IMG/VR virus record: IMGVR_UViG_3300032285_003395
Coordinates: 1 to 64,000 of that record
Reading direction: 5' to 3' (one strand)
Length of the DNA: 64,000 nucleotides
DNA from: a virus
Position numbers and translations under genes: made by a program. Of this stretch, positions 46,378-59,779 are shown piece by piece; within the stretch, counting starts at the first letter, position 1, and every line of letters starts with the position of its first letter. The notes beneath the pieces were generated by a model. The model saw nothing but the letters and a program-made list of their open reading frames with translations, did not search any database and was not told the DNA's origin.

Positions 46378-47208
46378 TTAAAATGCAAACGGATTATCTT
46401 CAGATAAAGTTTCAGCTTTTTGAGAAATTTCAGCTTTTACTGCTTCAATATTAAATTCTTCCAAAGTTTCAGAAATAGGTGCAATATTACCTGAGAAAGA
46501 ACTATATTCTCCCATTAGTGCATCTATAATTTCTTTTGCTCCTTTTTTATTAGGATTATCTTTCATAAATGCTTTAGAATATATTTCCATATCATAATAA
46601 GTATTGTTATCTACTTGTCTAGATTTAATACCTGCATAAACTTTAATAGTTTTATTTTCCAAAACTAATTTTTGCAAATCAGAAAAATCTCCTTTAAACA
46701 AATTTTCTACTGGTAGAAATATTTGAGGAGTATCTCCATCTTTCAAAGTAAATTTAGATAATTCAGTTTCCCAATTCATTAGTTTAACAAAAAAGTCAAC
46801 AACAATATCTTCTCCTTTAATACATTTTCTTGCATTATCAGTATAATACCAATTTTTATTTTTATTTAAAATTGATAAATCTTCTACATAAGTAGCAAAA
46901 CCTTGACCATTAATCATTTTAGTTTTACCAGAACGTGATACATCATATCTACCTTCTAACCAAAATGTAATTTTAGTTTTAACATCTACTTTTGGAAGTA
47001 TACCCCAAATATCAATTCTTAAAGATTTTACATCTTTACCATCAATATTTTTTGTAGTCAAATATTGAGGCTCTGTATTAATTTGTCTATTTAAAAATGT
47101 TCCCAAATCTTTACTATTTGGGTTAATCATTAATGGTTGAAAAGATCCTACACCATAATATTTTTTAAATGTAGTTGTATTACTTGCTGTTTTTACGTTA
47201 TTATTCAT
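46378..47208 (-). CDS. putative single-stranded DNA-binding protein
   Basis: Lies between the ATPase and primase genes; acidic/aromatic tail SEDNPFAF. Confidence 0.5.
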   Translation of the reverse strand: MNNNVKTASNTTTFKKYYGVGSFQPLMINPNSKDLGTFLNRQINTEPQYLTTKNIDGKDVKSLRIDIWGILPKVDVKTKITFWLEGRYDVSRSGKTKMINGQGFATYVEDLSILNKNKNWYYTDNARKCIKGEDIVVDFFVKLMNWETELSKFTLKDGDTPQIFLPVENLFKGDFSDLQKLVLENKTIKVYAGIKSRQVDNNTYYDMEIYSKAFMKDNPNKKGAKEIIDALMGEYSSFSGNIAPISETLEEFNIEAVKAEISQKAETLSEDNPFAF

Positions 47209-52644: not shown

Positions 52645-53300
52645 TATGTATATTTTTTTAATAGTTGAAAATCTTTAAAAGTAATAGGATTAAAATTTTC
52701 AGGATCATAAGTTTCTTTATCTATAGATAATTTTAAAAATGGATGAGGAATATTTTTAATATGTAATTCAGATTGAATTATTTTATATAAACCTTCTTTT
52801 TTAATTAAATTATTTATAAAATTACTTACTATATCAGAAGAATGTAAAGGTTTCATACTTTTATACAATCCTTTTAATAATAAATTTACATGAATATTAA
52901 ATATTTCATTATCTGGTTTTATTGCAAATACATGATGTAAATCATTTTCATAATAATCTAATGTTTGTGGTATTTCTTCTAATACTTCTAATATAGTTAC
53001 ATTGTTCTTATTAAAATTAACATTAGGTAAATACTTAACATCTTTTTTAAATACTAAATAAATAACATCACTTGCATAATTATATTCAACTTCTTTATTA
53101 AATAAATAAGAATTAATTAAATTTTCATTATGCAAGTATGTTAAAGTGGATAAATTGTTAGAAATATTTTTAAAAATATTTATATGATTTAACAAAAACA
53201 AAGAAGTTTGAGTTATCTTTAAATCTTCTAATTCTTTAAAAAAATATGTCTGATGTGGATTCTTCAAGGTCATTCCAATCATTTTTAATGTATTTTTCAA
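52644..53300 (-). CDS. hypothetical protein (true start may be slightly downstream)
   Basis: 218-aa ORF coupled to the polymerase start. Confidence 0.55.
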   Translation of the reverse strand: MKNTLKMIGMTLKNPHQTYFFKELEDLKITQTSLFLLNHINIFKNISNNLSTLTYLHNENLINSYLFNKEVEYNYASDVIYLVFKKDVKYLPNVNFNKNNVTILEVLEEIPQTLDYYENDLHHVFAIKPDNEIFNIHVNLLLKGLYKSMKPLHSSDIVSNFINNLIKKEGLYKIIQSELHIKNIPHPFLKLSIDKETYDPENFNPITFKDFQLLKKYT

Positions 53301-54111
53301 TTAAATCTAATGCATCGTCTATTAATACTTTACCTTGAATTTCATCTTTATATGATAGAGGATATATTAGTGGTTCATCTATTTTTACAGAGTTACAAAC
53401 TACCCAATGAAATGGGCGTAAAGTATAATCACCATAACCATTCTTTTCCATAAAATCTTCTATTCCCATTAAATATAACTTACCTTGTAAATGATAATAA
53501 TATTTTTTAACTGACTCAGGAAATTGTGGAGGATAACTGCTAGATTTTAAATCTGTTACAATTATTTCTTTATTTGCTTTATCAATTTTTAAATAATCTA
53601 ATTTAACTAAAAAATTAAAATCTCTATATTTAAATTCCCATTTAAATTGTGCTTCACCTTCAGAAAATAAAAAATTAACTTTTTCATCTTTCTTTAAGTA
53701 AGTACCTATTTCTTTTCCTAAATCAAAATTATCTTTTAATATTTTATTTTTAGGATCTTTAAAATAGCTAATATAATCTGGATAACTTAATACAGTATTT
53801 AATATTTTTTCATAATTCTTAGATTTTACATTTAATGAAGTAGCAGCTTCTTCAACTGATTCTAAATTAAATTCTTTTTGATTGTTAATAATAAATTCTA
53901 TAATAAATTTTATTTGTGGTTTAGGAAGCTCAATATCTAATATTTCTTCCGTAAACTCTTCATTAAATACTACTTTATCAATTACAGTTCCTTTTTCCAA
54001 AAAAGAAGATTTTTTATAAACTGGGTTTAAAAAAGAATCTTTACCTTCTTTTAATAATCTACTCAAGGAACTGTAACTTAATCTTAGTGTTTCTTTATTA
54101 GGTGTTTGCAT
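53236..54111 (-). CDS. PD-(D/E)xK exonuclease (RecE/exonuclease VIII-like)
   Basis: LSYSSLS, KGT, KLDY, DLKSS and YHLQGKLY; likely start MQTPNK at 54111. Confidence 0.75.
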   Translation of the reverse strand: MQTPNKETLRLSYSSLSRLLKEGKDSFLNPVYKKSSFLEKGTVIDKVVFNEEFTEEILDIELPKPQIKFIIEFIINNQKEFNLESVEEAATSLNVKSKNYEKILNTVLSYPDYISYFKDPKNKILKDNFDLGKEIGTYLKKDEKVNFLFSEGEAQFKWEFKYRDFNFLVKLDYLKIDKANKEIIVTDLKSSSYPPQFPESVKKYYYHLQGKLYLMGIEDFMEKNGYGDYTLRPFHWVVCNSVKIDEPLIYPLSYKDEIQGKVLIDDALDLIEKYIKNDWNDLEESTSDIFF

Positions 54112-55552
54112 AATGATTATTTGTATAAGATGCAAAAGTACTCAATTTATCTGTAAAAAACAAATTTTTTCTATTATTATAATAATAAATTAATTCTTTT
54201 TTAACTTCATCTTTAAAATAATAATTAATTACATCCATAACAGTAAATACATGTCCTTCTAAGCATTCTTTTATGTGATCTTGCACAAACTCAAAGATAG
54301 CAATAGAAAGTAAAATTTGATTAATAACTCTGTTAGAGTTAAAAGTATTTTCATGAATTCTAAATTCTATAGTATTTCTACTAGAAAATAATAAATTCAT
54401 AAAATTAAATACATAATACCTGTTTACTCTATCCCATTTATTTTTTAAAGGATGTTTCTTATTCTTTTTGTTAAAGTTTTTACAAGAAGCAATTCCATCT
54501 GTTAAAAATAAAAATATATTTTTGTTATTATAATTAACAAGATATTCAAATTCTTTTTTATCTATCTTATTAAATGATATATTTTTACATAAAGGAGGTA
54601 AAGGTTTAGTATAATGTTTTCTTTTATTTAATACATTTTCTTTTTTATAATAAGGAAAATAACTAAAATAATCATGTTGAAAATAATATAAAAAATTATA
54701 CAATGCATTGATAAAAACTTTATCATTTCTAATATTACCAATATGAACATGCAAACTACAGTTTATATCAGTATTAACATTATTAGCATTTAAATTCATA
54801 AATTTTTTAATACTCTCAATACCTTTTAATCCTGACATAGGTACAGAAACATACTCTGCATTATCAATAGAACCATCTCTACAAATAGAAAATCCATATT
54901 TTTTTAAACTATGACGATATACAGAACCTTCAGAAGTTTCTAACTCTATACCAAAAGTATAATTTTTTAAATATTTTTTATATTTATAAGTAGTTTTTTC
55001 TATTTCAATATTAGATTTATTATATAAAAGAACAGATTCTTGATAATCTGAATTATCTTCTATATTATAAGCTCTATGAGTTGCAATAGAAGATGAAGTT
55101 TCTTCTTTTATTTGTTCAATAAAACTTTCTTGATCTGTAATATTTCCAATATAATAAAATTTAGAATTAGCTTTATTAAAAATAAAATCTGAATCATATA
55201 AAATTTCTTTAACATCTTTTATATAAACTATAGCTGTATCATATTGAAAAATTTTACCCTTATTAATAAAAACAAGATCTTTGGTACATTTAAAATAAAT
55301 TTGTTCCATCTTAGTAGGATCTTTAAGAAAGAATCCTAGTGTAAATGTTTTATTATTTTTATCATAAGAAATTACACCAAAATCAAAACTATTATCTCTA
55401 ATTAATTTACTAAAATGATAATGTTTATTTAAATCTTCTATAAAATATACATCAGGATGATTTATATGATAATAATTTTTTCTATAAATAATACATTCTT
55501 TTCTAGGTACTTCGTTACCAAGAATGTCAATAACTTTTTTATAAGTTTTCAT
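54098..55552 (-). CDS. putative amidoligase (COOH-NH2 ligase, glutamine-synthetase-like fold)
   Basis: TFGIELET, DGSI...EYVS, CSLHVHIG and TIEFR, preceded by an extra ~190-aa N-terminal region. Confidence 0.85.
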   Translation of the reverse strand: MKTYKKVIDILGNEVPRKECIIYRKNYYHINHPDVYFIEDLNKHYHFSKLIRDNSFDFGVISYDKNNKTFTLGFFLKDPTKMEQIYFKCTKDLVFINKGKIFQYDTAIVYIKDVKEILYDSDFIFNKANSKFYYIGNITDQESFIEQIKEETSSSIATHRAYNIEDNSDYQESVLLYNKSNIEIEKTTYKYKKYLKNYTFGIELETSEGSVYRHSLKKYGFSICRDGSIDNAEYVSVPMSGLKGIESIKKFMNLNANNVNTDINCSLHVHIGNIRNDKVFINALYNFLYYFQHDYFSYFPYYKKENVLNKRKHYTKPLPPLCKNISFNKIDKKEFEYLVNYNNKNIFLFLTDGIASCKNFNKKNKKHPLKNKWDRVNRYYVFNFMNLLFSSRNTIEFRIHENTFNSNRVINQILLSIAIFEFVQDHIKECLEGHVFTVMDVINYYFKDEVKKELIYYYNNRKNLFFTDKLSTFASYTNNHYANT

Positions 55553-55562
55553 AATTTTATTT

Positions 55563-57263
55563 TTAATAACCTCTTAAATATTCTTGTTCATTAAAATTAT
55601 AACTTGAAAATTCGTCTTCATCTTCATCTTCAACAGGTTCATTGTGAGCAATATAAAATTCTAATACATGATTATTAATAGCTTCACAAAAAGAACCATA
55701 TTCTTTAACCATATCATTCCAATAAACATTAAATAATACAGTAGAAAATTCTGTAAATTTAGAGTTAGCAACAACAGATGAAGTATCTATCATTAGATCA
55801 AACATTTCTAGTTTATATAAAGGATTTTGTTCTATAAAGTTTAATATAGTTTGTTTAGAAAGATTAGGTTGTAAAATAAATTTTAATAAATGATAACTAA
55901 AGAAATATTGTTCACAATAAAATTTTTCTATTACTTCTTTTTCATCTAAGAAATCTGTATCAATTTCTAAACTAGATTTACTAGGAATAGATAATAACAT
56001 ATTATTTCTATTACTATCTATTTCTTCTATTTTTACAATATTAAAACTTTCAAAAAACAAATGTTTGTTAATAAATATTTTAGGTAATGGAAAATAAACA
56101 TTACTTTTTTTATTAATAGGTTTATACCAAGTGCTATTATATTTTATAGGAACCATACTAATACTTTCCAAATCATGGTTTGGAACTTCATAACTTAAAA
56201 TATTATTAATATTAAATTCAAGATTTTTACTTAAAATTTTTGCTCTTATTAATTCTAAATTTACCCAAATACCTTTATTAAAAACATAAATATATTCTTC
56301 ATCTAATATACTATCTAATGGTTTATTTATTAAATTAAATATAGTATTATCTTTATTAGATCTATATACACCATGTAATAATTTATTTTTAGATTTAGTT
56401 TTAAATAAACCTTTTTCAAATAAAATTTTAAATTTATCAGATTGATGTTCATCAAAACTATTTGTAGTATTAGAAAATAAATTATAATTACTATGTGTAT
56501 AAAAAGAAGATTTACTAACAAAAACTTCATCTTGAAAACATTCAGTTCTATCTATTTCAACAGTACTTATAACTTTATTATTTTTAAATTCAAAAATACA
56601 ATTAGTATTAATATCAAATATATTTTTATTTTCTTCTGAAGTACAAATAAAATTTAAACCTTTTTTAACAGAAGATAAATATAAACCTTCATTAAGATAA
56701 ACACCAAATAAAGGTCTTTCTTCAGTTAAAATGTTATTATTAGTTTTAGATTCACCTTTAAATACTTTAAGAGTTTGACCTCCATTATCAGTCCATACTA
56801 AAGTTGCTTTACCTCTATATTCTTTTAAAACATCATAACCATATTTATAAATAATATTAGCTAATAAAAAAGAATCTACTTTATCATTTGTATCAATATC
56901 TATAGGATATTTTTTAACTAAATCTTCTATATTATAAATAGTACCATTATGACAAAATACAAAGTTATCATCAATAATAAAAGGATGCAAATTTTCATCT
57001 GTTTTACTTCCTTTAGTAGCATATCTAGTATGGCTAATTACACAAGTAGCTTTAGTTGTTTTTTTAGTAAAGTGAAGGTTTGTATACAATTCTGAAAAAT
57101 TAGCTTTAGTAGCATCTTTATAAGAATAATTACTTGGGGCAGGGTTAGCCCAAATGCCAACCCCATGTCCTCCTCTAGAATCATTTGCAATACTTGCTAA
57201 CTTTAACTTTAATATATTTGGATTTTTATAGTTATTGCCTATAAATGCAGTTATTCCACACAT
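55563..57263 (-). CDS. class II (Ntn) glutamine amidotransferase with a long C-terminal extension
   Basis: MCGI start, RGGHGVG, HTRYAT, HPF, HNGTI, VDS and ERPL. Confidence 0.9.
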   Translation of the reverse strand: MCGITAFIGNNYKNPNILKLKLASIANDSRGGHGVGIWANPAPSNYSYKDATKANFSELYTNLHFTKKTTKATCVISHTRYATKGSKTDENLHPFIIDDNFVFCHNGTIYNIEDLVKKYPIDIDTNDKVDSFLLANIIYKYGYDVLKEYRGKATLVWTDNGGQTLKVFKGESKTNNNILTEERPLFGVYLNEGLYLSSVKKGLNFICTSEENKNIFDINTNCIFEFKNNKVISTVEIDRTECFQDEVFVSKSSFYTHSNYNLFSNTTNSFDEHQSDKFKILFEKGLFKTKSKNKLLHGVYRSNKDNTIFNLINKPLDSILDEEYIYVFNKGIWVNLELIRAKILSKNLEFNINNILSYEVPNHDLESISMVPIKYNSTWYKPINKKSNVYFPLPKIFINKHLFFESFNIVKIEEIDSNRNNMLLSIPSKSSLEIDTDFLDEKEVIEKFYCEQYFFSYHLLKFILQPNLSKQTILNFIEQNPLYKLEMFDLMIDTSSVVANSKFTEFSTVLFNVYWNDMVKEYGSFCEAINNHVLEFYIAHNEPVEDEDEDEFSSYNFNEQEYLRGY

Positions 57264-57274
57264 ATATTTTTTAT

Positions 57275-57664
57275 TTAGTTGTTAGTAATAGGTCTATAAT
57301 CATTATAATCACCAGATGTAATAATTGTAGAACCTGAGTTTTCCATAAAATAAAGCCAAGCTTTTATTACTTGACCCTTTAATTCAACATTAATTTCTTC
57401 TCTACAATACCATTCAGGATGTCCTTCTAGTCTATCTACTGATGGCAAATGTAAGTCTCTGTTAATTTCCCAAACATCTACAACAATTTGTGTATCTGGA
57501 GTTTTATTAACAAAAGGAATACCACTAGCTCTCATTTGATATTTATCTACAGTTTTACCTGTACCTAACCATTTAGTCTGACCAGGAATATCTACAAGTC
57601 TAGAATTACCATAACCTTTACGTAAAGTGCCATAGCTTGCAATTAAAATATTATTTTTTATCAT
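57275..57664 (-). CDS. gamma-glutamylcyclotransferase (AIG2-like)
   Basis: YGTLRKG, DRLEGHP..Y.R and AWLY motifs. Confidence 0.9.
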   Translation of the reverse strand: MIKNNILIASYGTLRKGYGNSRLVDIPGQTKWLGTGKTVDKYQMRASGIPFVNKTPDTQIVVDVWEINRDLHLPSVDRLEGHPEWYCREEINVELKGQVIKAWLYFMENSGSTIITSGDYNDYRPITNN

Positions 57665-57779
57665 CTTCACTTAATGTTTTTAAATCTTTAATAATTTCTT
57701 TTATTTCATGTATTTCAAAAGAACCTAGCCTATCAGACCATAATAATAATTCTGTTAATCTTTTAATTATCTCTATCAT
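57651..57779 (-). CDS. 42-aa ORF absent from the ORF track
   Basis: MIEIIKRLTELLLWSDRLGSFEIHEIKEIIKDLKTLSEDDKK*; fills the gap and overlaps both neighbours. Confidence 0.65.
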   Translation of the reverse strand: MIEIIKRLTELLLWSDRLGSFEIHEIKEIIKDLKTLSEDDKK

Positions 57780-58713
57780 TTTGATTAATTATATTAATGT
57801 CTGAATCTAATTGAAAGTTTTTCCAAGCTAATGATTTAGAATTTTTAAATTTTTTAAAATCCCAATGTTCTAACTTACTTGTTTTAGTATGTCTATGAAT
57901 ATAATCAAATAGTTTAGCATATCTTTGAACAGTATAATCATTAGATATTAAAGTTGGACTAGAATTAATTTCTAATACATAATATTTATCTTCAAATCTA
58001 ATAATATCTACTGCACCAAAATCAGCTCCAACTGCTTCCATTGCTTTTAAAGCTGTTATACACATATCATAATTATATTCAGACCAAGGAATATAAATAA
58101 ATGGATCTCCATTTAAAGATCTATTCCAAGCTTTTTGACTAGGATTACTAGGCTTTGGTTTTTCTAATACAGAAATTACTTTACCTAAACCACAATGTAC
58201 TCTAAACTCTGCATCTTTTTCTAAATAAGGTGCAAAATAAAAATTAGTCATTTCATTTAAATCTAAAAAATGATTTAATTCATTACTATTATTTAGTACA
58301 ATAAAATTTCTACCTTTTGCGTGTTGCAAAGGTCTACAAATTATAGGATATTCTAAATTAGAATCTTCAGAAATTTTTTCATAGGTATAATAGGGAGTTA
58401 ATATATTATTATTTTTTAATATTTGTCTAGTTAATCCTTTGTTATTAATTTTTTCTAGAGCTTTAATATTATTATAAACAATACTATTATTATTAACTGG
58501 TAAAGGTATTCTATTACCCCATCTAATAATTACATTTTCATTAAAAGGAGCATTAATAGATTTTTTAATAAAATAATCAGAAACATTATAATTAAATGAT
58601 CTAAACCATTCTTTATTTTTAATTTTTCTTCTGATTCTTAATTCACAATTAAATTTCATGTGTTGATAGACAGCTTTCATTGAAGGTCTACCATCTTTAC
58701 CTACTAGTATCAT
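57763..58713 (-). CDS. RimK-like ATP-grasp ligase
   Basis: IIRWG, NKG, PIICRP..HAKG, EFRVH, DFGAVDI and VLEINSSP. Confidence 0.88.
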   Translation of the reverse strand: MILVGKDGRPSMKAVYQHMKFNCELRIRRKIKNKEWFRSFNYNVSDYFIKKSINAPFNENVIIRWGNRIPLPVNNNSIVYNNIKALEKINNKGLTRQILKNNNILTPYYTYEKISEDSNLEYPIICRPLQHAKGRNFIVLNNSNELNHFLDLNEMTNFYFAPYLEKDAEFRVHCGLGKVISVLEKPKPSNPSQKAWNRSLNGDPFIYIPWSEYNYDMCITALKAMEAVGADFGAVDIIRFEDKYYVLEINSSPTLISNDYTVQRYAKLFDYIHRHTKTSKLEHWDFKKFKNSKSLAWKNFQLDSDINIINQNDRDN

Positions 58714-59036
58714 ATTTTTTTAGGATTTTTTAAGTTATGTAATTTTAAAACATACATATCTAATGTTTGTTTTTTGCCATCTATGTTAGAAACTTCTCTT
58801 CTATTAAATTCTAGTGTTTTTCTAAAACCTAGTTTTTTAAGATTTCTTCTTAAAGTAATTTCTTCTTTTTTGACTATACATTGAATAGTAGTTTCACCTC
58901 TTCCATAACCATGCCAATTAATTTGATCTAGTTGATTATATTTTTTTAAAAGTTTTTTATACATTATATCAACGTTATCATAATTTTTAGCTTGTAAAAA
59001 TAATAATGCACAACAAGGTGTTCTCTTTATGGTCAT
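58710..59036 (-). CDS. basic hypothetical protein
   Basis: ATGA overlaps on both sides; PCC and LKKLGFRK. Confidence 0.6.
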   Translation of the reverse strand: MTIKRTPCCALLFLQAKNYDNVDIMYKKLLKKYNQLDQINWHGYGRGETTIQCIVKKEEITLRRNLKKLGFRKTLEFNRREVSNIDGKKQTLDMYVLKLHNLKNPKKI

Positions 59037-59779
59037 AATAAATTATATTTTTTAATTAATAATTCTGCTTTACTTTTATCATTATTTTTTATAATATTTT
59101 TAATATTATATTTTTCATGATCTTTAAAGTTAGATTCTAATAAATTTAAAGCTAGTTCTGAATTATTCCAAACAAAATCTAAATATCTTTCTTGTTGAAA
59201 CCAAGAACTTAATACTCTATATTCTACCCATTTATTATTATCTCTATAAGAACCTGCATTACCATATAATTTTTTACGATCATTATCAGGCTCTAGTAAT
59301 AAACTTGGAATAGCTAAAGTAAAATCTAGTAATTTAACTAAATCTTTTTGAAGATTATGTTTTACATCTATATGAAGATGAAATCCTGCAGACCTACCTT
59401 TAAACTTCATAGGATTAACTTTTACTACATTATATTTACCTGTATAAGCATTTAAATCTGGTTCACAACCAAATGTAATACTTTCTACAGTATATAATTC
59501 TTCTTCATCTACTTCATAAAAAGGAAATGGAGATAATTGTAAATCACTTTCTAATAAAGATTTTAAATAATCTTGACTTTCCAAGATTTGTTTTTTAAAT
59601 ACTTTTTTATTGTCTGTAATTGGAGTATTATATTCCATCATAATACAGTCTAAAGAAGTTAAAAATCCTCCTTCTTTCCATTGGTAAGGAAAAGTTTTAG
59701 TACCTTCTACAATACCACAAGCATTAATTGCTTTGTTATTTCTTGTAACAAAAATTTCTATATCTGTTCCTAAAATCAT
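59033..59779 (-). CDS. phiEco32-like COOH-NH2 ligase (type 2)
   Basis: LGTDIEIF, GTK, EYN, FGCEPDLNAY, RSAGFHLH, RKKLYG.AG.YR and VEYRVLS. Confidence 0.88.
   Translation of the reverse strand: MILGTDIEIFVTRNNKAINACGIVEGTKTFPYQWKEGGFLTSLDCIMMEYNTPITDNKKVFKKQILESQDYLKSLLESDLQLSPFPFYEVDEEELYTVESITFGCEPDLNAYTGKYNVVKVNPMKFKGRSAGFHLHIDVKHNLQKDLVKLLDFTLAIPSLLLEPDNDRKKLYGNAGSYRDNNKWVEYRVLSSWFQQERYLDFVWNNSELALNLLESNFKDHEKYNIKNIIKNNDKSKAELLIKKYNLL

Follow-up and report, generated by a model that had tools for sequence, protein, structure and literature searches.

A predicted five-enzyme copy of the known gamma-glutamyl amide cassette in a crAss-like phage genome

A phage cassette of ligases and associated enzymes, which would form and trim glutamate-type amide bonds and is referred to here as the "gamma-glutamyl amide" cassette, was predicted from sequence by Iyer et al. 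2009, according to the account in PMC10580990, and is found in podophages of the phiEco32, LUZ24-PaP3 and RIO-1 types (Iyer et al. 2009; Hardies et al. 2013, 2016). Versions of it occur in phages of Proteobacteria, Bacteroidota, a cyanobacterium and a planctomycete. Nor is it a new system, since it is already annotated in PaP3 and in Cellulophaga phage phi14:2 (Crassvirales, Steigviridae; g037-g041). Its product is as yet uncharacterised: a literature search found no biochemistry for any cassette member, in line with what a first-pass annotation of the DNA studied here had stated.

We analysed a stretch of 64,000 nucleotides (positions 1 to 64,000 of IMG/VR record IMGVR_UViG_3300032285_003395; hereafter the window). 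Judging from family matches and conserved residues, positions 54098-59779 of its minus strand very probably hold an intact five-enzyme copy of the phiEco32 / LUZ24-PaP3 / RIO-1 / phi14:2 cassette. The link to the phiEco32-type system drawn in the first-pass annotation was correct, the enzyme families being the same and including PF14395, which takes its name from phiEco32. That this known cassette serves a gamma-glutamyl pathway acting on small molecules is, taken as a whole, the explanation we consider fairly probable.

Gene layout and genomic setting

The phage genome is complete (97,665 bp, with terminal repeats). Its PolA has crAss-like phages as best matches, and the cassette is syntenic with that of phi14:2 and of about 80 contigs, many of them about 100 kb long, which together support the earlier assignment to a crAss-like phage. 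All seven open reading frames of the region were verified at their positions on the minus strand. Five of them encode enzymes, namely a COOH-NH2 ligase (C), a RimK-like ATP-grasp ligase (A), a GGACT cyclotransferase (Y), an Ntn class II GATase-like protein (G) and a GS-fold amidoligase (L), transcribed in the order C-(108 aa)-A-(42 aa)-Y-G-L. Pfam and PHROG matches, together with the fold of L, bear out the gene calls of the first-pass annotation, and its description of the genes as tightly coupled agrees with the coordinates: 4-nt overlaps join the 108-aa ORF to C and to A, the 42-aa ORF overlaps its two neighbours by 17 and 20 nt, and G and L are separated from the gene before them by 11 and 10 nt, respectively.

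Eighty-two related loci, mostly crAss-like contigs from IMG/VR, were collected via the amidoligase. The complete five-gene set is present in 70 of them, and most of the 12 incomplete loci are interrupted by a contig end. In each of the 80 loci holding both G and L, L comes directly after G (median gap 2 nt, range -80 to +26); no G-L fusion of at least 1160 aa was found, which speaks weakly against the mechanism put forward below. The association of the five genes is far from chance, and the claim that they form a cluster stood up to this comparison. One or two Peptidase_C26 gamma-glutamyl hydrolases are added in 62 of the 70 complete relatives and a second GGCT in about 14, additions that reinforce the gamma-glutamyl theme. 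None of the 82 loci has the gene order of the window, and Peptidase_C26 is absent from the entire genome of the phage that carries it.

The first-pass annotation had also counted the two small ORFs as cluster members. Neither the basic 108-aa ORF (58710..59036, minus strand) nor the 42-aa ORF (57651..57779, minus strand) matches a Pfam or PHROG family. The former fills the slot held by Peptidase_C26 in most relatives, yet is unrelated to C26, and its sole homologue among the 82 loci (L035, 810-1109) lies far upstream of the cassette of that locus. The latter, a real and mobile small gene, matches 29 Flavobacterium phages at 77% nucleotide identity along a stretch of 90 nt, where its counterpart is an unannotated in-frame 53-aa ORF directly before a UvrD-type helicase; its homologue is positioned as in the window in locus L005 and adjoins a helicase gene in L035 and L040. 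The 42-aa family further occurs in Flavobacterium phage FPSV-S29, which is cassette-free, having neither COOH-NH2 ligase nor class II GATase. Because both ORFs occur outside the cassette in other phages, and one family even in a phage devoid of it, they were rejected as cassette components or dedicated substrates; they are probably unrelated small mobile genes inserted among the cassette genes.

Downstream of L lies the gene of a PD-(D/E)XK recombination exonuclease (53236..54135, minus strand; PF12705, E 7e-5; phrog_412, E 7e-11). Found at this place in 77 of the 82 loci and not beside the cassette in Lbo-JY46 or PaP3, it is a conserved downstream neighbour from the replication module whose membership in the cassette is unsupported. 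The cassette very probably lies in the replication-gene arm, on one transcript with the genes for helicase, exonuclease and DNA polymerase. Such a setting could suggest that the enzymes modify DNA or nucleotides, or act on DNA or nucleotide precursors at the replication fork, the more so as the cassette keeps a fixed place in crAss-like phages, with the primase on one side and the UDG/RusA/exonuclease genes on the other, L carries an SSB-type tail in one subclade, and homing-endonuclease inserts, which are typical of core replication genes, are located within cassette genes. However, no domain of a DNA-binding protein, glycosylase, base transferase or nucleotide kinase turned up in the cassette, and the phage encodes ThyX and dUTPase, indicative of ordinary dTMP synthesis; to our knowledge, the amino-acid-bearing base modifications described so far rely on other enzyme families. 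We consider a role of this kind very unlikely.

Predicted enzymes and their active sites

Three of the five proteins are predicted ATP-dependent carboxylate-amine ligases, two of the GS fold (C and L) and one of the ATP-grasp type (A). C (59033..59779, minus strand; 248 aa) is a phiEco32-type COOH-NH2 ligase, i.e. a GS-fold carboxylate-amine ligase (PF14395 COOH-NH2_lig, E 1.6e-9; phrog_3815, E 5e-43), with homologues in 76 of the 82 loci. It retains the GxDxE motif, Arg129, His134, Glu186 and Arg188, and residues G4, D6, E8, K28, D44, E49, R129, H134, R168, R179, E186 and R188 are invariant across 30 relatives. A (57763..58713, minus strand; 316 aa; PF08443 RimK, E 1.3e-6; phrog_2599, E 4e-22) is a RimK/cyanophycin-synthetase-like ligase whose family profile matches PurD-like, cyanophycin synthetase, alpha-L-glutamate ligase and RimK structures (E 2e-11 to 8e-8). 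Its catalytic residues Lys92, Glu169, Arg171, Asp236, Glu248 and Asn250 are kept; K92, E169, R171, H173, K185, D236 and E248 are invariant among relatives and N250 nearly so.

L (54098..55552, minus strand; 484 aa) is an Amidoligase_2-type GS-fold ligase whose match to PF12224 Amidoligase_2 (E 4e-4, 20.7 bits) falls slightly below the 22-bit cut-off; it was kept as an amidoligase because its relatives carry PF12224 and its fold fits GS, GCL and YbdK (Z 8-10.6). Its structure model (pLDDT 87.8, pTM 0.88) comprises an N-terminal beta domain (~1-135), a linker and a catalytic domain (~180-484), and each of its 19 best structural matches is a GS, GCL, YbdK, PafA or Dop protein (Z 5.9-10.6). The GxExE, RDGS, CSxHxH and EFRxH motifs are intact, and E203, E205, R225, D226, G227, S228, E233, C265, S266, H268, H270, E396, R398 and H400 are invariant among relatives.

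By fold, the ligases of both the ATP-grasp and the GS type are similar to enzymes of the glutathione pathway, which would fit genes that boost the glutamine, glutamate or glutathione-type metabolism of the host during infection, a metabolic role suggested for Poriferisphaera phage ZRK32 on growth correlations only, without enzymology (PMC10945688). Yet the proteins are distant from the housekeeping enzymes, C and L matching no solved structure by sequence, and a fixed, co-adapted cassette in lytic phages would be unexpected for a general booster, making auxiliary nitrogen or amino-acid metabolism highly improbable.

Y (57275..57670, minus strand; 131 aa; PF06094 GGACT, E 3.5e-18; phrog_2520, E 4e-28) is a GGACT/AIG2-type gamma-glutamyl(amine) cyclotransferase with the motifs YGTLR (Y13, R17) and LEGHPxWYxR (with Glu82), both conserved in relatives. 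G (55563..57263, minus strand; 566 aa) is an Ntn class II GATase-like protein in which the match to PF13522 GATase_6 (E 1.7e-15) is confined to the N-terminal ~270 aa. In its AlphaFold model (mean pLDDT 80.5), the glutaminase domain (1-247) is followed by a disordered linker, then by a beta-rich middle domain (272-418), a helical domain (439-545) and an acidic tail, the N-terminal domain matching the folds of GlmS (Z 23.2), PurF (Z 23.1) and EgtC (Z 22.6). All 26 relatives compared share Cys2, R30, H78, R80, N106, G107 and D130, and these conserved residues align with the glutamine-site motifs of GFAT. The C-terminal half has no family match in any of the 26 + 6 relatives. The first-pass annotation took G for an ammonia donor; the intact glutamine/gamma-glutamyl pocket agrees with this, but no synthase domain is recognisable and, because the fold fits EgtC as well as GlmS and PurF, G may equally be a gamma-glutamyl amidohydrolase, i.e. 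a second "eraser".

The retention of family motifs claimed earlier holds for all five enzymes, whose catalytic residues are kept and conserved in relatives; the active sites are not degenerate. The large extensions reported on the amidotransferase and amidoligase also exist and, as modelled, the C-terminal one of G and the N-terminal one of L, for which no match was found, are likely real folded domains.

Candidate substrates of the pathway

The pockets of G and Y are predicted to recognise the L-gamma-glutamyl group, G being an Ntn Cys1 enzyme with an Arg/Asn-Gly/Asp glutamine site. Pockets of the GGACT and class II GATase types require a gamma-glutamyl group with free alpha-amino and alpha-carboxylate groups, and our small-molecule reading derives solely from what is generally known of the specificity of the enzyme classes GGACT, class II GATase and C26. 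The version of it that we infer throughout, and put forward tentatively as one that may well be wrong, is a cytoplasmic pathway whose substrate would be a small amine- or carboxylate-bearing molecule or a short peptide. A GS-fold ligase would join glutamate via its gamma-carboxyl and A would then add one or more residues. G and L would act as a fixed pair, either with G yielding ammonia from glutamine and L amidating an ATP-activated carboxylate, or with G hydrolysing a gamma-glutamyl amide made by L. Lastly, Y would release the gamma-glutamyl group as 5-oxoproline, a type of release with precedents in butirosin synthesis (BtrJ/BtrG) and the Puu pathway. The reversible write/erase use of the cassette proposed earlier is a plausible candidate reading. 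The targets suggested with it in the first-pass annotation, among them envelope or receptor components, a signal and an anti-defence metabolite, are speculative.

Alternatively, the ligases could put glutamate or short peptide tags on carboxylates or lysines of host or phage proteins (cf. RimK, tubulin ligases, PafA), with Y and G, and C26 in other phages, recycling or removing the tags and the extra domains of G and L binding the target. A is closest to RimK, alpha-L-glutamate ligases and cyanophycin synthetase, and the fold of L also fits PafA and Dop (Z 7.6-9.0). The extra folded sequence of G (~300 aa) and L (~135 aa) could bind a macromolecule, in which case protein tagging would be favoured. 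Of 83 relatives, 13 have an L with a bacterial-SSB-type C-terminal tip (e.g. DDLPF/Y), which suggests that L docks on replication proteins in that subclade, but the L of the window lacks such a tail. The need of GGACT and GATase pockets for a free gamma-glutamyl group would moreover restrict Y and G to small molecules or, where a tag is concerned, to its outermost residue. Among the genes that travel with the cassette, no conserved substrate candidate was found, the small ORFs being non-specific and the accessory small families having no common tail. On balance we hold tagging to be rather unlikely.

Peptidoglycan stem peptides have gamma-linked glutamate, which is amidated in some bacteria. 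This would be consistent with the cell-wall proposal for which PMC10580990 cites Iyer et al. 2009, whereby peptidoglycan precursors or an envelope peptide are altered to block superinfection or aid lysis. However, the cassette lies among early/middle replication genes, beside the primase or helicase, in crAss-like phages and PaP3, no signal peptide or membrane segment was seen by eye in the five proteins of the window, and the hosts named above differ widely in their envelopes. Action of a GGACT-type enzyme on peptidoglycan would also be precluded on enzymological grounds, because the alpha-amino group of the glutamate is blocked there. Envelope modification therefore seems quite unlikely, and we favour the small-molecule gamma-glutamyl pathway.

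Comparison with known systems

The phi14:2 cassette has the identical five families, annotated as GGCT, S6 glutaminyl transferase, COOH.NH2 ligase, aminotransferase and amidoligase, likewise without Peptidase_C26, and like that of the window it has all its genes in one direction, within the replication module. Its order is Y-A-C-G-L, as opposed to C-(108 aa)-A-(42 aa)-Y-G-L, and UDG and RusA stand between L and the PD-(D/E)XK exonuclease, which in the window directly follows L. The amidoligases of the two are homologous over 87% of their length at just 24% identity, and G is shorter in the window (566 versus 638 aa). Between the window and the podophage-type cassettes, C is ~31-38% identical; tblastn with the crAss-type L found no match in phiEco32/PaP3/RIO-1-type phages, the sequences being too diverged. 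In PaP3, whose cassette adjoins a primase/helicase gene and is interleaved with other unknown ORFs, G and L are adjacent but in the opposite order (L-G), and both are shorter than in the window (L 398 aa, G 517 aa).

The canonical crAss-like order in IMG/VR runs primase, Y, C26, A, C26, C, G, L, UDG, RusA, exonuclease. It agrees with the window in the five core genes, in having G joined to L and in its place within the replication module, but usually includes one or two C26 genes; particular to the window copy are its permuted order, the absence of Peptidase_C26 and the insertion of the 108-aa and 42-aa ORFs. In the butirosin (BtrJ/BtrG), Puu (PuuA/PuuD) and ergothioneine (EgtA/EgtC) routes, glutamate is likewise attached by an ATP-dependent ligase, and a GGCT-fold, C26 or Ntn enzyme takes the gamma-glutamyl group off again at a later step. 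Their likeness to the cassette is one of working principle, not of orthology, and extends to fold in that EgtC resembles G of the window (Z 22.6) and the gamma-glutamyl-amine synthetases resemble its L.

Enzyme families and domain architecture of the cassette

The seven ORFs that a first-pass annotation had grouped into a peptide/amide-bond cluster are all open on the minus strand at 54098-59779, and neighbouring genes overlap or lie no more than 11 nt apart. The first in transcription order encodes a 248-aa COOH-NH2 ligase of the phiEco32 type (59033-59779, minus strand; PF14395, E 1.6e-9, 37.9 bits, cut-off 25; phrog_3815, E 5e-43), in which GxDxE, Arg129, His134, Glu186 and Arg188 are intact and conserved across relatives. 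The ATP-grasp protein (57763-58713, minus strand, 316 aa; PF08443, RimK-like ATP-grasp, E 1.3e-6; phrog_2599, E 4e-22) likewise retains the conserved ATP-grasp motif residues Lys92, Glu169, Arg171, Asp236, Glu248 and Asn250. Its nearest solved structures are mixed (PurD-like, cyanophycin synthetase, RimK, LysX), and by its family match it is a putative RimK-like ligase not assigned as RimK proper. The GGACT-type gamma-glutamyl cyclotransferase (57275-57670, minus strand, 131 aa; PF06094, E 3.5e-18, 66.7 bits, 117 of 120 profile positions aligned) carries YGTLR, an instance of the YGxL substrate motif, and LE82GHP..Y.R, both conserved across relatives; Glu82 is presumably the catalytic residue.

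The amidoligase that ends the cassette (54098-55552, minus strand, 484 aa; Amidoligase_2, PF12224, E 4e-4) scores 20.7 bits, just below the 22-bit Pfam cut-off. Its place among the GS-fold ligases is nevertheless secure, because PF12224 is carried by relatives at 60-74% identity, because the metal- and ATP-site motifs GxExE, RDGS, CSxHxH and EFRxH are invariant in the relatives' alignment, and because the 19 best structural matches of its confident model (pLDDT 87.8, pTM 0.88) are all glutamine synthetases, glutamate-cysteine ligases, YbdK, PafA or Dop (Z 5.9-10.6 for these 19 and 8-10.6 in the top 18, falling to 4.4 thereafter). Immediately upstream, the class II GATase-like protein (55563-57263, minus strand, 566 aa) matches PF13522 (E 1.7e-15) over its N-terminal ~270 aa only; Cys2, R80, N106-G107 and D130 do not vary among 26 relatives, and its catalytic and glutamine-site residues align with the GFAT motifs HTRWAT, HNG and TDT. 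The degenerate active sites that would have spoken against the first-pass reading were thus not found, the catalytic residues being intact and conserved across relatives. Judged by family and motif content, the cassette combines three predicted ATP-dependent carboxylate-amine ligases of two folds with two enzymes built for L-gamma-glutamyl recognition. Upstream of the COOH-NH2 ligase gene lie two further ORFs (239 and 123 aa) that match no family and lack homologues both in the 82 comparison loci described below and among the accessory families.

Both the GATase-like protein and the amidoligase were said to bear large extensions, and these are real and folded in the models. In that of the GATase-like protein (mean pLDDT 80.5), an Ntn domain (residues 1-247) leads through a disordered linker (248-271) into a beta-rich middle domain (272-418, pLDDT ~80-89); another linker joins this to a helical domain (439-545, pLDDT ~88-95), after which comes a disordered acidic tail. 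In structure the Ntn domain matches EgtC, the ergothioneine amidohydrolase (Z 22.6), as well as it does the glutaminase domain of GlmS (23.2) or PurF (23.1). Family and structure searches revealed no recognisable synthase domain in residues 272-566, nor any Pfam family in the C-terminal half of 26 + 6 relatives, a region poorly conserved in sequence in a protein whose length ranges from 493 to 868 aa. The N-terminal beta domain of the amidoligase (~1-135) is kept across its family and found no match, with no Pfam family in three relatives. An ESM Atlas search with the extensions, using a poor model, returned only TM scores <0.45, and the VIA-align match lists obtained with the whole models were filled by the catalytic domains. 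We therefore describe the extensions as folded in the models and without a family match, and make no claim of new folds or target selection.

We note that seven of the 26 aligned GATase homologues (L013, L022, L024, L056, L058, L063 and L075) start with a hydrophobic stretch of ~25 residues that precedes the catalytic Cys, with no Met right before it. This implies either a propeptide needing cleavage or an ORF call wrongly extended.

Phage lineage and conservation of the cassette

The virus record is complete (97,665 bp with direct terminal repeats), and the window is its first 64 kb. At a G+C content of ~22%, the window is divided near 38.4 kb by a change of coding strand into two opposed gene arms: a plus-strand arm with three ORFs of 2343-2505 aa, and a minus-strand arm (~38.5 to 64 kb) of replication and nucleotide-metabolism genes encoding ThyX, dUTPase, ribonucleotide reductase, primase, a Sak4-like annealing protein and a DnaB-like helicase. 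Among deposited phages, the best matches of its family A DNA polymerase are the crAss-like IAS virus, cr108_1 and crAss001, and the gene order around the cassette is syntenic with Cellulophaga phage phi14:2. The earlier assignment to the crAss-like phages (Crassvirales) is justified by the ~100-kb genome, the opposed arms, the giant proteins, the polymerase matches and the phi14:2 synteny; the lineage is a distant one, since tblastn found almost no match among deposited phages for two giant virion proteins. A promoter and terminator scan of this AT-rich DNA performed no better than on shuffled sequence.

As a single query, the amidoligase retrieved nothing from viral contigs; an alignment-based scan yielded 80 viral contigs, many of them 90-105 kb long. 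Together with phi14:2 and Leptolyngbya phage Lbo-JY46 these make up 82 loci with an amidoligase gene, whose ORFs were searched iteratively with each window protein. The GATase-like gene is present in 80 of these, the COOH-NH2 ligase in 76, and the ATP-grasp ligase and the cyclotransferase in 74 each. That the genes co-occur in relatives, on which the first-pass reading depended, is borne out by the presence of the complete five-gene set in 70 of the 82 loci; most of the 12 incomplete loci end at a contig boundary. The GATase-like gene is followed by the amidoligase gene in all 80 loci holding both (median gap 2 nt, range -80 to +26 nt), and the two are also adjacent, in reverse order, in Pseudomonas phage PaP3. 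The five-enzyme core and the junction of these two genes form a conserved unit in crAss-like phages, and their invariant adjacency suggests the amidoligase as candidate partner of the GATase-like protein. No fusion of the two scored among proteins of 1160-3310 aa, which is weak evidence. The usual crAss-like layout runs primase, cyclotransferase, Peptidase_C26, ATP-grasp ligase, Peptidase_C26, COOH-NH2 ligase, GATase-like protein, amidoligase, UDG, RusA and exonuclease.

In one canonical crAss-like cassette, the second GGCT and Peptidase_C26 are separated by a gene of the RNA-ligase family (L020:2848-3846; PF09414, E 2e-11). Inserts split cassette genes in several loci. The COOH-NH2 ligase gene is split in L073, L078 and L079, the amidoligase gene in L079 and L082, and Peptidase_C26 in L019, L024, L026, L037, L048 and L050, there by an inserted family on the opposite strand. 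The inserts of L078 and L079 measure 1.0-1.1 kb and hold an ORF of one family (LAGLIDADG in L079). We read them as probable homing-endonuclease or intron insertions, of the kind found in core phage replication genes.

The order of the window cassette, with a 108-aa ORF (58710-59036, minus strand) between the COOH-NH2 and ATP-grasp ligases and a 42-aa ORF (57651-57779, minus strand) between the latter and the cyclotransferase, recurs in none of the 82 loci. Peptidase_C26 (PF07722) was found nowhere in the complete genome, and the relatives' C26 profile matches no window ORF. One or two copies occur in 62 of the 70 complete relatives; its absence from the other eight, phi14:2 included, marks it as accessory and the five-enzyme core as standing alone.

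Both small ORFs had been counted as members of the cluster, a view that their homologues do not bear out. Over 90 nt (window 57690-57779), the 42-aa ORF is 77% identical at the nucleotide level to 29 Flavobacterium psychrophilum phages. Its counterpart there, a 53-aa ORF without annotation (L001:5929-6090 in phage FPSV-S29), is conserved in frame and is flanked by a zinc-ribbon gene and a UvrD-type helicase. The complete genome of FPSV-S29 (91.7 kb) has neither the COOH-NH2 ligase nor the class II GATase. Further homologues lie just before a helicase gene, far from the cassette, in L035 and L040, and only in L005 is the placement that of the window; L005 and L004, the two among the closest metagenomic relatives (P0004-P0012) whose gene context was covered, are both cut upstream of the cyclotransferase gene. 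In the locus set, the 108-aa ORF has a single homologue, in L035, on the upstream side of the Sak4 gene. Since homologues of both are found outside the cassette, neither is a dedicated substrate or partner; we regard the two ORFs as passengers, not worth chasing as substrates. The 42-aa ORF was also considered as an RNA element, and had no Rfam match and in-frame conservation; the 108-aa ORF, considered as a degenerate Peptidase_C26, is not matched by the relatives' C26 profile. The shared 42-aa family is a hint that this very AT-rich phage has exchanged genes with Flavobacterium phages and infects a flavobacterium.

Candidate reactions and substrates

The gene content is suggestive of a cytoplasmic pathway, expressed alongside the replication genes and centred on gamma-glutamyl amides, in which the GATase-like protein and the amidoligase would act as a fixed functional unit. 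Ammonia released from glutamine by the former may go to an acyl-phosphate that the latter has formed, resulting in amidation. Alternatively, the GATase-like protein may take off what the amidoligase attaches, in the manner of EgtC. Most relatives add gamma-glutamyl hydrolases, namely C26 and a second GGCT. By analogy with butirosin biosynthesis (BtrJ/BtrG) and the Puu pathway, which are precedents for a route that attaches glutamate, builds on it and releases it, we tentatively favour such a small-molecule route, as a possible rather than a probable function. The preference stems from the pockets of GGACT, class II GATase and C26 enzymes, which require a free glutamyl alpha-amine and alpha-carboxylate. 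Protein tagging by the same ligases, of which the amidoligase matches PafA and Dop in fold, is set against this pocket requirement and appears unlikely. The first-pass observation is upheld and its interpretation supported in part: the gene identities, the phiEco32-type link, the co-occurrence and the intact sites stand, and the small ORFs as components fall away.

Other proposed roles look less probable still. A proposed role in the cell wall or in superinfection is credited to Iyer et al. 2009 in later papers (PMC10580990); modification of envelope precursors seems to us improbable. An eLife paper (PMC10945688) gives the cassette genes a helper part in nitrogen metabolism and offers no enzymology; we consider this function very improbable. 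The place of the cassette among replication genes could also point to DNA or nucleotide modification; the phage encodes ThyX and dUTPase, which argues against the known thymidine hypermodification routes, and we hold DNA or nucleotide modification to be equally far-fetched.

A role at the replication fork, as opposed to the envelope or bulk metabolism, is suggested by the position of the cassette between primase and the UDG/RusA/exonuclease genes, which is fixed across crAss-like phages, the repeated homing-endonuclease inserts, and the C-terminal tips of certain proteins. In a sizeable subclade, 13 of the 83 amidoligase homologues, the protein terminates in an SSB tip of the bacterial type (..DDLPY, ..NDLPF, ..DDNLPF or ..SDNPF); among these homologues are those of L033, L037, L038, L039, L042, L049, L052, L060 and L070, where the C-terminus of the gene lies at ~10.2-10.8 kb in the locus. 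The tip is absent from the other four cassette enzymes and from the window's own amidoligase. A 276-aa protein encoded between the primase and the Sak4-like annealing protein (46378-47208, minus strand) ends in ..EDNPFAF, has no Pfam or PHROG family, and belongs to a family (E 2e-75) ending in DDDLPF in several other loci; by position and tail only, it is probably the SSB-like protein of this phage. The PD-(D/E)XK exonuclease directly after the amidoligase (window 53236-54135, minus strand; L004:3682-4554; L005:4765-5646) has an acidic-aromatic tip, ..SDIFF, ..ENIFF or ..ESIFF, in the window's clade only, that of the main crAss-like clade being ..NDDFIEVN. No shared acidic tail was seen in the small accessory proteins. 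Under this proposal, the ligases might act on the acidic C-termini of SSB or further proteins of the replisome, amidating or lengthening them, which, if true, would rewire SSB-binding partners during infection. We consider it very doubtful, and retain the small-molecule route as our tentative preference.

Comparison with known phage systems

The link to the phiEco32-type system drawn in the first-pass annotation is upheld by the occurrence of PF14395, a GS-fold amidoligase, an ATP-grasp ligase, a class II GATase and a GGCT in one co-directional block. Our literature search, in which Iyer et al. 2009 was known through citing papers, found no biochemistry for the cassette, in agreement with the earlier description of its product as uncharacterised. 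The window cassette is a further copy of a known, uncharacterised phage system and adds little alone. Its interest lies in the system as a whole: few phage enzyme sets without a known product are as widespread as this one, which extends to hundreds of podophages and at least 80 viral contigs, many of crAss-like size (~100 kb), in a nearly constant arrangement. Knowing the product would account for one conserved step of infection by crAss-like phages.

phiEco32 is the source of the PF14395 name, and a tblastn search with the COOH-NH2 ligase by itself matches 304 deposited phages. The cassette gene set is present in PaP3 and Lbo-JY46. In the latter (L002, 16.5-29.3 kb of the record), it comes with three C26-like genes and a 536-aa ATP-grasp protein and directly follows the genes for PncB (nicotinate phosphoribosyltransferase) and PrsA (PRPP synthetase), which serve NAD/PRPP supply. 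In phi14:2 the five cassette genes are already annotated as g037-g041, and this phage and Cellulophaga baltica, a cultured pair with the same minimal set as the window, provide a tractable model.
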